Of a DNA stretch of 64,000 bases, positions 11,926 to 18,984 are shown piece after piece (the first letter of the stretch is position 1; each line of letters begins with the position of its first letter). The notes below the pieces were generated by a model that saw only the letters and a list, made by a program, of their open reading frames with translations, was not told the origin of the DNA and ran no database searches. The position numbers and the translations under genes are program-made. Source of the DNA: Parcubacteria group bacterium (lineage in GTDB: Bacteria; Patescibacteriota; Minisyncoccia; UBA10092); contig JACPHB010000006.1 of the NCBI GenBank assembly GCA_016188835.1, forward strand, positions 1,877-65,876, given 5' to 3'.

Positions 11926-13407
11926 ATGTATAAAACCAATAAAAATGAATTTTTAAAAGGAGTTGGGCTGGCCGATTACTTTGATGAGTATTTTGACGCG
12001 CTGGAAAATCCTTTCTCCGAAGATACGGCTGTTTTGCCAATTCTTAAAAAAATCGGAGAAAAATTCGCTTATTCCTTGGAAAGTTTTATCGGAAATCAAA
12101 TATACATCAAAAAACAAATCTCGCCGCTTGACCATGTACCGCCGAAATTCCGCAGAGTTGTCGCGCGGCTTGCCAAAGAGGGAATTATTACCGACTGTTA
12201 TCGCCCAAAGCCGATTCCCGATTGGCCCAATATTCCGGCGTTAAGAATTACCTGCGGCGGATTAAGTCCTTCCGGTTGTTCGCTAAGCTACGAAGAAGCG
12301 GCAAAAAAAGCGGTTGCCGAATGTTTTGAAAGACACTCGTTTACCATATATGATAATAAAAAATTTATCTATGGATCCTACGCGGAATTTGAATTAAACG
12401 GCGCCCTTGATCCAAAACTTTTTAGCGGGTTTTCAAAGAATCAGCTGCAAAAAGAAAATTATGCCCGGCATCGCTTGGATGACAACTCAAAATTTATGTG
12501 GACGGAGGCAAAATCACTTTTTGATAATAAAAAATGTCTTGTTCCCGCTCAGTTAATTTATCTTGGGTATAAAAACGAAAAAGAAGAGCCCGTCATCAGG
12601 CAAACCACTACCAGCGGAGCTGCGGCGGGGAGCAGTTACGATATGGCTTTATACAATGCTCTTTGCGAAGCGGTGGAGCGCGATTCTTTTGTCATCCATT
12701 GGTTAAATAAAATTACTCCCCCCAGAATCAATCTGGACAATATTGCCAATGAGCCCATAAGGCGTCTGCTGTCGGAATATAAAAAATTCAACATTGATTT
12801 TGCCGTATTTGATATAACCACGGATCTTAATATTCCGGCCGTTCTTACCGTAATCCGGGATAACGCGCCGAAAAGATTAAAAGTATACGCGGCGCCTCGG
12901 GCAGATCTTGATATAGAAAACGCCATAAAATCTTCTCTTTCCGAAGCTCTCGTGGCGGGATTTATAAATGAAAGCGCGACGGAAGAGGTAAAAATATTAA
13001 ACGACAATGAGGGGGAAAATATAAAGAATATAAAAGATAGAATAATCTATTGGAGTGATCTGAAAAGAATCGGCGAAGCGGATTTTCTTTATGGAGACGG
13101 CTTTAGAACTCTTGCCGATAATAAATATCGGGGGGCGGGCGCGAAAGAAAAACTGCCGGTTCTTAAAGAAATTTTAAAAAACTCGGGGCTTGACGCTTAC
13201 GTTGTTGACGCAACCACGCCTCTTGCCAAAGAATTCGGTCTTACCGTTTTAGCGTCGCTTATACCCCGGCTCTGTCCGCTTTACCTTAACGAACACTATA
13301 AATGCCTTGGTGTAAGAAGATTGTATGAAGCTCCGGCGCGGATGGGAATTTTTAAAAATTCGAAAAAAGAAGAAGAAATGAACTTGGTACCACACCCGAT
13401 GCTTTAA
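11926..13407 (+). CDS. ycaO: YcaO-domain protein (ATP-dependent amide-backbone activating enzyme / cyclodehydratase family)
   Basis: YcaO hallmarks CGGLSPSGCSLSYEEAAKKAVAECFERHS, TTTSGAAAGSSYDMALYNALCEAVERDSF and C-terminal Pro-rich end NLVPHPML; start moved to the in-frame ATG at 11926 to avoid overlapping the convergent epimerase gene. Confidence 0.8.
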   Translation: MYKTNKNEFLKGVGLADYFDEYFDALENPFSEDTAVLPILKKIGEKFAYSLESFIGNQIYIKKQISPLDHVPPKFRRVVARLAKEGIITDCYRPKPIPDWPNIPALRITCGGLSPSGCSLSYEEAAKKAVAECFERHSFTIYDNKKFIYGSYAEFELNGALDPKLFSGFSKNQLQKENYARHRLDDNSKFMWTEAKSLFDNKKCLVPAQLIYLGYKNEKEEPVIRQTTTSGAAAGSSYDMALYNALCEAVERDSFVIHWLNKITPPRINLDNIANEPIRRLLSEYKKFNIDFAVFDITTDLNIPAVLTVIRDNAPKRLKVYAAPRADLDIENAIKSSLSEALVAGFINESATEEVKILNDNEGENIKNIKDRIIYWSDLKRIGEADFLYGDGFRTLADNKYRGAGAKEKLPVLKEILKNSGLDAYVVDATTPLAKEFGLTVLASLIPRLCPLYLNEHYKCLGVRRLYEAPARMGIFKNSKKEEEMNLVPHPML

Positions 13408-13416
13408 TCAAAAAAA

Positions 13417-14919
13417 ATGGCTAGACATATAAATTATAATAAAAAAACGGAAGAACGGCTGAAACAGGAAATAAAATGGCTTCTGGAAGAAAAATATGGA
13501 AACAAAATTACTGCGGAAGCAAACCAAGATATAGAAAAGATAAAGAACGGCGAACCGGTTGATTATGTCATCGGTCGGACTGATTTTTGCGGGGCAAAAA
13601 TCGACTTGTCTTTGCGTCCGCTAATCCCACGGCCGGAAACAGAATGTTGGGTAGCGGAAGCAATAGACGATATTAAAAGCCGGGGGAATATCGGTGAAAT
13701 TAAATGCCTTGATTTATTTTCCGGCTCGGGGTGCATAGGCATCGCGATTTTAAAAAACATTCCGGAAGCGCGCGTTGATTTTGTGGATATAGACGACATC
13801 GTTCTAAAACAAATAGCGATAAATCTTAAATTAAATGGTATTCACGAAAATCGTTTTTCCATAATAAAATCGGATATTTTTGAAAATGTAAGCGGGGCGT
13901 ATGATTATATTTTCGCCAACCCGCCGTATATTCCGACTAAATATCCGGTTGCCCAATCAGCCATTGAATATGAACCCCATCACTCCTTTTTGGCGGGAGA
14001 TAGCGGTCTTTTATTTATAAAGCCGTTTCTTGATGGATCAAAAAAATATTTGAAGAGCGGCGGCAAATTGTGGATGGAGTTTTATGCCGGAGAAAGAATG
14101 GAAATTGAAAATATCCTCCAAAAAAACAACTATGATTTTTATTTTAACGAACTCGGCGATTGCGGAGTTTTGTCGGCCAAACTGCGCGCGGAAAAAGCAT
14201 ATGCCGATCCGTTTTTTGAATACTTTGATAAAGAAATGCCTCTGATCAATCTTAATTCTTCGGAGTGGGGGACAATAACCTATAAAGAATATCCCTGCTC
14301 TTCCAAAATTATACTGCCCAATCCCGCTCCGCTTCCAACAAAAACAATAGAAGATGTTTTGTGTCGGAGAAAAACGGAAAGAAATTTCTCCAAAAAGCCG
14401 CTTTCCAAAGAAATACTGGGGCGATTGCTTTACTTTAGCGCAGGGCTGATAAGCAAAACGGTTGGCGCGGCAAACGAATTCCGCCGTTTTTACCCTTCCG
14501 GCGGCGCGAGATATCCGATAGAAATTTATATTGCGAATTTCACCCCCGGCGAGCTTGATGCGGGAGTTTATCATTATAACGTCAGGAACCATATATTGGA
14601 AAAATTGTCTTTTTCCTCCGCCGAAAAGATAAAACACGCCCTTTTTTATGATTTTGCCAAAGACGCCGCCGCGCTTATACTTCTTTCTTTTGTCGGTGAG
14701 CGAACAACGAAAAAATACGGTAATTTAGGATACAAATTAGGAATGATTGAAGCGGGACATATCGGACAAAATATTTATCTGGTAGGAACGGCGCTCGGGC
14801 TTGGAACGCTTGCCCTTGGAGGAATGAATTATGAAGTGGCGCAAAGGGAGTTAAATCTGGGAGAAGATGAAACGGTATTTTATCAGCTTGCCGTGGGACA
14901 ACCGGAAGAAAACAAATAA
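13417..14919 (+). CDS. fusion protein: N-terminal PrmC/HemK-type protein-(glutamine-N5) methyltransferase (about aa 1-280) plus C-terminal SagB-type (nitroreductase-fold, TOMM) dehydrogenase domain (about aa 300-500)
   Basis: PrmC motifs GRTDFCGAKIDLSLRPLIPRPETE, LDLFSGSGCIG, FANPPYIP; SagB-type motif RRFYPSGGARYPIEIY plus GMIEAGHIGQN nitroreductase core; 9 bp downstream of ycaO. Confidence 0.75.
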   Translation: MARHINYNKKTEERLKQEIKWLLEEKYGNKITAEANQDIEKIKNGEPVDYVIGRTDFCGAKIDLSLRPLIPRPETECWVAEAIDDIKSRGNIGEIKCLDLFSGSGCIGIAILKNIPEARVDFVDIDDIVLKQIAINLKLNGIHENRFSIIKSDIFENVSGAYDYIFANPPYIPTKYPVAQSAIEYEPHHSFLAGDSGLLFIKPFLDGSKKYLKSGGKLWMEFYAGERMEIENILQKNNYDFYFNELGDCGVLSAKLRAEKAYADPFFEYFDKEMPLINLNSSEWGTITYKEYPCSSKIILPNPAPLPTKTIEDVLCRRKTERNFSKKPLSKEILGRLLYFSAGLISKTVGAANEFRRFYPSGGARYPIEIYIANFTPGELDAGVYHYNVRNHILEKLSFSSAEKIKHALFYDFAKDAAALILLSFVGERTTKKYGNLGYKLGMIEAGHIGQNIYLVGTALGLGTLALGGMNYEVAQRELNLGEDETVFYQLAVGQPEENK

Positions 14920-15007
14920 GCAATTGCCGGGCAACAAATTGTGGATAAAATTACTTGCCAACAATCTGATTCCGATAGATACTTGATTTAGTTAATAAAA
15001 TTTTTTT

Positions 15008-16471
15008 ATGAAAAAAATATTAAATTCCTTCGCATTTTTATTTAAGGCCTTTATTCTCGTGCTCATTCTTCTCGTTGGCTGGGCATTTATAAATATTACC
15101 AATTTAATTAAAGGAAAAAAATCGTCGGATAAGGACTCTTTGTCTAAAAATATGTTTGGCGCGGATGAAGCGTCTGCCGATGCGGGTGGAAAGGCCACTA
15201 CTCCATTTCTTGCCTGTTTTGACGGCAAGGAATATAAACTGGAAAATGACATTCTTTTTGGCAGGCCGAACAGCTTTTATCACCAATACGATACGGCTAA
15301 GGCGCTTTACGAGGATGGAAGAATTTTCCCCGATCTTTATAAAATTACTTCGCCCGTAAAATCTTACAGCGGGAAAATTCTTTTCCAAATTCAGGAAATT
15401 GAGCCGGAAGAGAGCTTTTTCAAGTGGCTGGAGTTGACTCGGGTGGCGCATCCGGAAAACACGGAAGTTGTGGTTGACTCCGACTTCAAAAAATTTTATG
15501 TGCTCGAAAAAGATCGGCTTGAGAAAAAAATAGTTTTGCCCTCGTCGGTCATTGATAATCGCGGGAGGGATCGCGGCAAAGAAATTTCTAGTCAAGATCT
15601 TTTGTGGCAATATGACGCTACTTCTGTCGGGAATATACTCTTTAACGTCAATGAGAGTGTGGAGATAACTTTTAGAAATCTAAAGAGAGGAGAAATCCCG
15701 CATCTTATTACAAAAACGTGGTTTAGAGATTGGGTGGCCGGAGAAGCGCATGCGCATATTGCCGATAAAAAAATAAGCGTTCTTGATTTTTTCACCATTT
15801 TCGGGCTTAAAAAAGCGGCTACGATTGCCGTACTGTTTATTTTTGGCTGGGCGTATTATAAATTCGGATTTGCGCCGGGATCTCTTACTTTTCTTCCGCT
15901 ATTTGCGGGAGTCCAATGCGGCTGCAGTTGCGCGTGTCTGACTTATAGTTATAAAAATGAAGAGGGAAATTATCAGTGGATTAACATAAGCGATGTGCGG
16001 TCGTGGAAACATAACAATGAAATGGTTGAATTGCCGCGCGAAGCCGTAAATTCCAAAGGTGAATTAACGCTTCGCGTTGCCGCGACCAAAAAACACGCCC
16101 TGGGATTTATCGGGGTGGTGCAGGAAGACGATTTGGCCGCCGCGAGCCATAGAAATTATCGGACGGAAAATCTAAATCTGCGGCAGGCATATCACAGCCG
16201 TTTGCAAAAAGACGCGAGCGGAGCGCTTAAAAAGGGATACTGGAAAGAATATTTACACACGATTCCTGGCGACAAGGTTGATATTGAGTTTGACGCGCCG
16301 AATTCCGAATTGGGCAAAAATGAAAAAGAAACTTATCTTCTGCGTTCTTCGGGATTTTATACTTCGCTAAGACCGGAATATAAAAAGCTTGCCGGAAACT
16401 GGCAGGAAAAAATAAGCGAAGAAGCAAAATCGCGATTAACTTCTTTAAAATCGCTTGAAAATTACAAATGA
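15008..16471 (+). CDS. membrane protein with Cys/Ser-rich motif GVQCGCSCACLTYSY next to the second TM helix; hypothetical
   Basis: N-terminal TM; internal TM; alternating Cys motif reminiscent of azole core peptides; immediately downstream of the YcaO/SagB genes. Confidence 0.5.
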   Translation: MKKILNSFAFLFKAFILVLILLVGWAFINITNLIKGKKSSDKDSLSKNMFGADEASADAGGKATTPFLACFDGKEYKLENDILFGRPNSFYHQYDTAKALYEDGRIFPDLYKITSPVKSYSGKILFQIQEIEPEESFFKWLELTRVAHPENTEVVVDSDFKKFYVLEKDRLEKKIVLPSSVIDNRGRDRGKEISSQDLLWQYDATSVGNILFNVNESVEITFRNLKRGEIPHLITKTWFRDWVAGEAHAHIADKKISVLDFFTIFGLKKAATIAVLFIFGWAYYKFGFAPGSLTFLPLFAGVQCGCSCACLTYSYKNEEGNYQWINISDVRSWKHNNEMVELPREAVNSKGELTLRVAATKKHALGFIGVVQEDDLAAASHRNYRTENLNLRQAYHSRLQKDASGALKKGYWKEYLHTIPGDKVDIEFDAPNSELGKNEKETYLLRSSGFYTSLRPEYKKLAGNWQEKISEEAKSRLTSLKSLENYK

Positions 16472-17547
16472 CCGCTTTATTTGGGGAAAACAAAAAATTT
16501 TTTTTGGGTGTTGCGGCTCTTATTGTGATTCTTGCCGGAGCTTTTTTTGGAGCGCGCTTTGCCGCCTCTTATTATTACAAAAAAGGCACAGAAACATATT
16601 TACAGAATAATTTTGCCGTTGCAAAAAATAATTTTGACATTTCTCTCATATTTGGCCCTAAAAATTCTCGGGCTCACTTTTGGCTTGGAAAAATAGCTTT
16701 AGGCCAGCCGGCTCCCAACCAGAATGTTTATTATCCCCAAGCCGATTATAAAGAAGCGGCTAAACATTACGAAAAAGCGATTTTACTCGGTCTTGAACAA
16801 AATAATGAAAATTTATACAAGGTTGCCCTTGATGATTTGGGCAATGCCTTTTGGAATTTAAACGAATTAGACAGGGCGCGTGAAAAATATTTCGAAAAGC
16901 TATCAAAATTTCCCGATGCGTCTTTTTGGGCGAGATATTTTATCGCTTGGCATGATTTTAATTATCTCAACAAACCGGATGAAGCGTTAGAAGTTCTATT
17001 GCCGGCATTAAATCTTGCTTCGTCTGACAACGATCGTTTTAATCTTTTTAAAATCAATCTGATGCTTGCCCGTCTTTATATTTATAAAAACGATTACGCG
17101 AGCGCGGTAAAATACGCAGAGAGCGTCATAGAAAGCGGCGGGCCGCAAAATAAAAGCTGGGAAGTTCAGGCCGCTCATGGGCTTTTGGCGATTGATTACG
17201 GCCGCCAGAAAAAATTTGCTTTAGCCGAAAGCGAAATTAAAAAAGCCAACGATTTGGCAGAATCGGCCGGCGCTAATAATTGTATTCTTGCGGCGGCTTA
17301 TGTCGCCGGAGAAAATTATCCGAAAGCGATTTCTGTTGCCGAAAAAATCGATATGGCCACTCAAACTTATATGAATTCCGTCTGCGTTCAGATATTGGCC
17401 ATTTCTTATTTGGCGAAAGGCGATAAAATCAATGCACGAAAGTATCTGGAAGAATATTTGAGTTTTACCGAAAAATTCACGGAGAAAAATATTTTTGTGA
17501 TGCGTAATCGCCAAGAGTTCGCCGAAGAGCTTTTAAAACTGAAGTAG
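16468..17547 (+). CDS. TPR-repeat protein with N-terminal TM anchor
   Basis: Repeated A/Y/L-rich 34-aa helical pattern; ATGA overlap with upstream gene. Confidence 0.55.
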   Translation: MTALFGENKKFFLGVAALIVILAGAFFGARFAASYYYKKGTETYLQNNFAVAKNNFDISLIFGPKNSRAHFWLGKIALGQPAPNQNVYYPQADYKEAAKHYEKAILLGLEQNNENLYKVALDDLGNAFWNLNELDRAREKYFEKLSKFPDASFWARYFIAWHDFNYLNKPDEALEVLLPALNLASSDNDRFNLFKINLMLARLYIYKNDYASAVKYAESVIESGGPQNKSWEVQAAHGLLAIDYGRQKKFALAESEIKKANDLAESAGANNCILAAAYVAGENYPKAISVAEKIDMATQTYMNSVCVQILAISYLAKGDKINARKYLEEYLSFTEKFTEKNIFVMRNRQEFAEELLKLK

Positions 17548-18126: not shown

Positions 18127-18984
18127 GTGGAATATATTGTGATTGTGATAAAGAAAAAACTAAATAGCTTATCAAAAGTCCTTATTCAAAATTTCTGGGC
18201 GGTTGGGTTTTTGGTTATCGTGTCTTTGATTTTAATTTTTGTTGCAAAGCAAGACACTTTGGCAAAATTATTGTGGCAGAAATATCGTTTGCCAAAAACC
18301 GCGCTATTGCTTGTGAATCGCGACACCGATTTAGCGATGTTTATCGGCAATTATTATTTTAACGGCGTAATCGGCGGCGGAAAATATGATCTCAATATTG
18401 CGGAGAAGGCATATAAAAAAGCGGTTTTAATAAATCCTAAAATTCTCTGGGGGCACTATCAGCTTGCGCGGATTTATTTTGTAAAAGGGGATTACAAACA
18501 AGCGCTTGAAGAAATCGCCAAAGAACTTGAAGCCAATCCGGAAAACCTGCGCTCGCTTTATGTTCGCGGTCTAATTTATGGCTATAGAAATCAGGCAGGC
18601 GATTTGGAAAAAGCCGAAGCCGATTTCCTTCGTTTTACTTTATGGGCGCCGAAAGAATGGGCGGGCTATAACGATTTGGCGTGGATTTTGTCAAAACAGG
18701 GAAAATATAAAGAAGCGAAAGAAGCGATAAACGCGGCTTTTCGCGAGATTAAAGAATCGGAAAATAACCCCTGGCTTTGGAACGCGCTTGGCGTGGCGGA
18801 GCTGAATCTGAAAGAATATAAAAACGCCGCGATATCTTTTGAAAAGGCCAAGCAATTGGCGGAAAAATTGACCAATGAAGACTGGTTTCATTCCTATCCG
18901 GGAAATAATCCGGTGTCCGCCGAAGAAGGACTTTCAGCTTTTATCGCCGCGATAGAAAAAAATCTCCGCCGCGCCAGCCAATGA
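18127..18984 (+). CDS. TPR-repeat protein with N-terminal TM anchor
   Basis: TM segment FWAVGFLVIVSLILIFV; multiple TPR-like units. Confidence 0.55.
   Translation: MEYIVIVIKKKLNSLSKVLIQNFWAVGFLVIVSLILIFVAKQDTLAKLLWQKYRLPKTALLLVNRDTDLAMFIGNYYFNGVIGGGKYDLNIAEKAYKKAVLINPKILWGHYQLARIYFVKGDYKQALEEIAKELEANPENLRSLYVRGLIYGYRNQAGDLEKAEADFLRFTLWAPKEWAGYNDLAWILSKQGKYKEAKEAINAAFREIKESENNPWLWNALGVAELNLKEYKNAAISFEKAKQLAEKLTNEDWFHSYPGNNPVSAEEGLSAFIAAIEKNLRRASQ

Follow-up and report, generated by a model that had tools for sequence, protein, structure and literature searches.

The locus described here encodes a YcaO protein next to a dehydrogenase that is fused to a glutamine methyltransferase, and it raises the question of what substrate such a set of enzymes would act upon. 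To our knowledge, azole-forming YcaO/SagB systems have been described solely for small ribosomal peptides, and the YcaOs that act on whole proteins (McrA, uL16) have so far been shown to make thioamides only. In the stretch of DNA that was analyzed (64,000 nt from a small, uncultivated member of the Parcubacteria, hereafter the window), the genes form a Parcubacteria-specific operon in the order YcaO, HemK::SagB, P470 and TPR protein, with a gap of 9 nt from the YcaO stop to the start of the fusion, a second gap of 88 nt and then a 4-nt overlap, and no terminator-like site stands out between the operon genes in the window. The features of the locus are the following:

11926-13407, + strand: YcaO cyclodehydratase, SagD-type, 493 aa (YcaO domain, aa 117-492)
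11926-12237, + strand: clade-specific N-terminal alpha/beta domain of YcaO (residues ~1-104)
13417-14205, + strand: PrmC/HemK-type N5-glutamine methyltransferase domain (fusion aa 1-263)
14206-14919, + strand: SagB-type FMN azoline dehydrogenase domain (fusion aa 264-500)
15008-16471, + strand: P470, a 487-aa Parcubacteria-specific membrane protein and candidate substrate
16468-17547, + strand: membrane-anchored TPR protein 1 (TPR Pfam matches; 4-nt overlap with the P470 stop)
18127-18984, + strand: membrane-anchored TPR protein 2 (TPR Pfam matches; conserved downstream partner)

The open reading frames lie where a preliminary description of this DNA had placed them, and its assignment of the first one to YcaO, with a Pro-rich end, is borne out by profile searches. 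The protein matches PF02624 with 201 bits and scores 265.8 bits against TIGR03604 (TOMM_cyclo_SagD), above the cutoff of 219.25; matches to TIGR00702 and TIGR03266 are weak (56.8 and 84.6 bits, far under cutoff). Its C-terminus, ...NLVPHPML, conforms to the N-x-[IVT]-P-H-P-[FM]-L ending common to every YcaO of the P470-linked clade and to a sister RiPP clade, and PxPxP-like Pro-rich C-terminal motifs are typical of azoline-forming YcaOs. On the TIGR03604 score and this motif, the window YcaO is classed with the azoline-forming SagD type, and the solved structures nearest to YcaO and the dehydrogenase are azoline heterocyclases and azoline oxidases. In contrast to the sister clade, YcaOs of the P470-linked clade carry an additional folded N-terminal domain of ~100 aa, for which no Pfam family was matched.

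The second gene is a single uninterrupted frame of 500 aa that, as had been proposed, joins a PrmC/HemK domain to a SagB domain. The methyltransferase half contains LIPRPETE (aa 69-76), the SAM motif DLFSGSGCIG (aa 99-108) and NPPY (aa 168-171), and its closest solved structures are those of HemK (2b3t/1t43). It scores 156.4 bits (about 156-158) against TIGR00536 (hemK_fam), above the cutoff of 115.5. Its top NCBIfam match is the PrmC equivalog model, TIGR03534, against which fused HemKs score 167.6-169.7 bits, under the equivalog cutoff of 199.1; all seven stand-alone CPR PrmCs compared (166.7-190.3) fall under this cutoff as well, and hence it has no discriminating power in the phylum. By fold, SAM motif and NPPY, the fused HemK is classed as a full HemK-family methyltransferase. 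It shares the full-length architecture and both motifs with E. coli HemK/PrmC (2b3t), from which it differs in scoring under the equivalog cutoff, in being fused to SagB and in residing inside a YcaO operon rather than being solitary. The C-terminal half opens at a conserved DPFFxYF motif that corresponds to the N-terminus of stand-alone orthologs. It matches PF00881 over aa 317-494 and contains RRFYPSGGARYPIEIY at aa 356-371, KKYG at aa 432-435, which we take to be the Lys-Tyr motif of SagB-type azoline dehydrogenases, and EAGH at aa 445-448. The TIGR03605 (SagB) score of 108.8, above the cutoff of 78.4, together with these motifs and with closest solved structures that are all azoline oxidases (CyaGox (ThcOx) 5lq4, BmdC 7ly4 and McbC 6gos), identifies the domain as SagB-type, as first described, rather than as a generic nitroreductase.

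The survey of gene neighborhoods among relatives that the preliminary description had called for found that the fusion recurs and that the conserved Parcubacteria unit, as judged from gene content, is made up of YcaO, a stand-alone SagB-like dehydrogenase, a P470 of ~480 aa and two TPR proteins. P470 adjoins the YcaO/NR pair at 22 distinct loci, and the adjacency is kept when the genes are inverted (L008, L046, L060), reordered with P470 upstream (L022, L055) or placed in an unrelated context (L009). TPR protein 1 and P470 co-occur at nearly all loci, whether YcaO is present or absent, and at some 10 distinct loci P470 and the TPR genes are found with no YcaO/NR within 10 kb; P470 is therefore not dependent on modification. 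Epimerase, GT2, TPR, ComF, ClpB and pilus genes are moreover syntenic in these genomes, so that the adjacency owes something to inherited gene order. No RNA elements were found near the operon, and a defence system was discarded as an annotation, PADLOC having returned a generic methyltransferase match only.

From its N-terminus, P470 comprises a transmembrane segment (TM1, aa 14-33), a disordered linker L1 that spans aa 34-66 and contains FGADEASADA as a motif, a first jelly-roll domain, TM2 with a short hydrophobic helix (aa 262-301), linker L2 and a second jelly-roll domain. One segment of it had already drawn attention as an alternation of Cys, Ser and Thr resembling azole core peptides:

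15908-15952, + strand: Cys-rich end of linker L2, GVQCGCSCACLTYSY (P470 aa 301-315), hypervariable, Cys/Gly/Ser-rich, ending at S/C310

The segment, part of one of two juxtamembrane linkers that are both hypervariable, is present as described, but the exact string varies among P470 orthologs, and what is kept is the regional composition and S/C310 (Ser in 37 homologs and Cys in the other 26 of the 63). Across these 63 homologs, Cys makes up 7.3% of the L2 loop versus 0.4% elsewhere, a 16.7-fold enrichment, and Gly and Ser are also enriched in the linker (2.5-fold and 1.8-fold); the candidate segments are thus similar in their Cys/Gly/Ser-rich composition to the cores of the TOMM microcin B17. 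The summed number of Cys in L1 and L2 averages 2.9 at loci with YcaO/NR (n = 22) versus 1.2 at loci without (n = 10; Mann-Whitney P = 2.4e-4, uncorrected for phylogeny). Several independent tree contrasts agree on this association, which rests on ~4-5 of them, and only at YcaO/NR-positive loci are CxC/CxxC clusters and long G/S/T/C inserts seen. The conserved adjacency, the enrichment of linker Cys and the tracking of Cys clusters with YcaO/SagB make the downstream membrane protein the credible substrate that it had been proposed to be. An enzyme pair that stands beside a large membrane protein with Cys-bearing linkers, with no small peptide, may modify the whole protein, and we give close to an even chance to P470 being the substrate of YcaO/SagB. 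Several observations speak against it, however. The nucleophile positions T/C/S65 and S/C310 are invariant with or without YcaO, and a few P470s are poor in linker Cys despite the presence of YcaO (two Cys in L009, one each in L048 and L055). A crude positive-inside count favors both linkers as cytoplasmic, whereas the jelly-roll/CBM-like domains, the envelope-glycan neighbors and the K/R-rich N-terminal tail fit an extracytoplasmic P470, the linkers of which would then lie beyond the reach of a cytoplasmic ATP-dependent enzyme. The membrane-adjacent Cys clusters could instead serve as metal ligands. A lipobox or signal-peptidase reading of the linkers was rejected, the motifs being wrongly spaced from the hydrophobic segments or inconsistent in the family.

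Under the mechanism that we propose, YcaO and SagB would serve the neighboring ~480-aa P470 alone, with no small leader-bearing peptide as their target. In both disordered juxtamembrane linkers, the ATP-dependent YcaO would form azolines from Cys, and possibly from Ser/Thr, and the FMN SagB domain would then turn these into thiazoles or oxazoles. Recognition of P470 would be a matter of protein-protein contact, possibly via the clade-specific N-terminal domain of YcaO. A likeness is offered by NHLP-type TOMM precursors, in which an azoline-forming YcaO engages a large structured domain and not a short linear leader (PMC12455567); these are soluble proteins of ~100 aa that are cleaved to free a peptide, whereas P470 is a membrane protein of ~480 aa with internal candidate sites. 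If P470 is the substrate, heterocycle chemistry would extend to protein maturation, and a large structural protein outside RiPPs would for the first time be known to carry azoles as a post-translational modification. A RiPP pathway would have been repurposed by loss of leader, peptidase and E1 partner and gain of a recognition domain, and the widespread, unannotated envelope module of Parcubacteria (P470 and TPR proteins) would gain a first entry point for functional work.

The fusion of PrmC to SagB is an unusual Rosetta-stone link, and the relatives bear on how it is to be read. Elsewhere, the partner of the P470-linked YcaO is a stand-alone SagB-like protein of ~250 aa (L007, L008, L009, L013, L015, L022), which, as judged by comparison of these sequences, is the ancestral and widespread partner, HemK being a lineage-specific addition. 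All fused HemKs fall in one clade of the tree, with no long branches and no acceleration, which indicates that HemK joined once. It is also separable: three close relatives (L025, L028, L029) have HemK removed in frame with YcaO and SagB kept, and at L059 and L062 HemK alone stands beside P470, without YcaO and SagB. HemK is a later addition in this sub-lineage that most likely either performs a tailoring methylation of the same substrate or is the lineage's PrmC merely fused.

The second of these options, in which a housekeeping prmC was inserted between ycaO and sagB and its stop codon disappeared, leaving a fusion without mechanistic meaning and a HemK that methylates release factors only, has a substantial, if less than even, chance of being right. 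Neither score nor branch length sets the fused domain apart from CPR PrmCs, the independent losses of HemK and of YcaO/NR and the HemK-only loci fit a housekeeping gene, and no second HemK was found within the window or the other loci examined. The gene that occupies HemK's slot between YcaO and NR at L043/L045, however, encodes a non-homologous methyltransferase of TehB/TPMT type, and other methyltransferases recur, upstream of YcaO at L009/L022 and beside the precursors in the sister clade. Taken together, these suggest that methylation is part of the pathway, and the shared slot hints that HemK may be a tailoring enzyme. Furthermore, the fusion is kept across 47-100% identity, and the stand-alone CPR PrmCs closest to it are found in other organisms and in unrelated gene contexts, which implies that it was to the P470 locus specifically that prmC moved. 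A Gln in a GxQ[C/S] context of linker L2 is present at all five distinct fusion loci versus ~1 of 11 YcaO/SagB loci without HemK. We nevertheless regard as unlikely a full three-activity machine, in which thiazoles or oxazoles would form in the linkers of full-length P470 and the fused PrmC-type domain would N5-methylate this Gln; such a machine would have a RiPP pathway and a methyltransferase of translation factors as its origins. An incidental fusion concerns the HemK domain alone and is therefore compatible with P470 as the substrate of YcaO/SagB, and even then the series of fused, deleted, stand-alone and replaced forms would provide a clear natural test of how modular tailoring enzymes are.

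That the locus is instead a conventional LAP/TOMM cluster, with a precursor that is unannotated, very short or distant, and with P470 and the TPR proteins as unrelated syntenic neighbors or as export or immunity functions, seems to us less probable, at about one chance among four. TOMM precursors may indeed be encoded distantly. The window shares with TOMM/LAP synthetases (SagBCD, McbBCD, BalhCD/BcerB, and LynD/TruD with ThcOx/CyaGox) a SagD-type YcaO with a PHP-type end and a SagB-type FMN dehydrogenase. It differs from them in having no E1-like/Ocin-ThiF (C/F) partner, small leader-core precursor, leader peptidase or exporter, in the novel N-terminal domain of YcaO and the PrmC domain at the N-terminus of the dehydrogenase, and in a candidate substrate that is a two-domain membrane protein. 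In agreement with the lack of an E1-like partner and a small precursor that was first noted, no E1-like, Ocin-ThiF or TfuA gene and no conserved small ORF beside YcaO/NR turned up in the window cluster or at more than 20 orthologous loci, the search having covered the 64-kb window and these loci. Every ORF of 20 aa or more within 11.7-18.2 kb overlaps larger genes; a Cys-rich one among them (16455-16610) is missing from relatives 88-92% identical and is hence a chance frame. At L001, a 125-aa ORF that separates the fusion from P470 was rejected as a precursor, being an unconserved coiled-coil protein.

The architecture had been thought undescribed, and this holds in part. YcaO plus nitroreductase pairs in CPR have been catalogued as LAP clusters by antiSMASH-type surveys, with 51 in Parcubacteria genomes (Sharrar 2020, mBio; PMC7298704), but neither the PrmC-SagB fusion nor a YcaO/SagB-P470 link was found in the literature searched. 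These clusters and the sister clade (L023, L024) come from the same phyla, show the same pairing and also lack an E1-like gene, and the sister-clade YcaOs, 32-35% identical to those of the window clade, share with them the IPHPFL C-terminus. The sister clade represents a textbook case of a small-peptide system, with Cys/Pro-rich precursors of 57-61 aa that have a common leader, plus an M16 peptidase; over the catalogued clusters and the sister clade, precursors range over 57-84 aa. No small precursor, M16 leader peptidase or transporter was found in loci of the P470-linked clade, which is linked to P470 and TPR proteins instead. The occurrence of P470 and TPR genes without YcaO/NR, in a largely syntenic neighborhood, is in keeping with a conventional cluster; the adjacency of P470 that outlasts inversion or reordering (L008, L022, L046, L055) and a new context (L009), and the linker Cys that follow YcaO/NR presence, favor P470 as the substrate.

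A YcaO plus PrmC-SagB machine whose target is the GGQ region of RF1/RF2 or a ribosomal protein, as the preliminary description had also entertained, now appears very improbable. HemK was added once and is separable from YcaO/SagB, which makes such substrates unlikely; YcaO/NR is older than HemK in the family, occurs mostly without it, and is kept where HemK was lost. No RF gene lies within the 64-kb window, and the one near L001 reflects general synteny, as it is equally near in L006, a locus devoid of both HemK and YcaO. The protein-directed YcaOs known to us make thioamides, and we know of none that is SagD-type with a dehydrogenase. On the other side, the fused HemK resembles an ordinary CPR PrmC (NPPY, TIGR03534 range, branch not accelerated), and McrA is, besides uL16, another full-length protein modified by a YcaO. 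E. coli YcaO on uL16 (PMC13063428) and YcaO-TfuA on McrA act on a folded protein by its tertiary structure and with no leader, as proposed here for P470, but these enzymes make thioamides, have no dehydrogenase and belong to other clades (TIGR00702, TIGR03266) than the window YcaO.

Finally, a frameshift or an assembly chimera of two genes, for which no point in favor was found, can be dismissed, since the same unbroken frame recurs in independent assemblies from NCBI, ENA, JGI and Logan as full-length fusions that are 47-100% identical and form at least eight protein clusters (P0001-P0008). Additional fusions are found at loci L027, L044 and L057.

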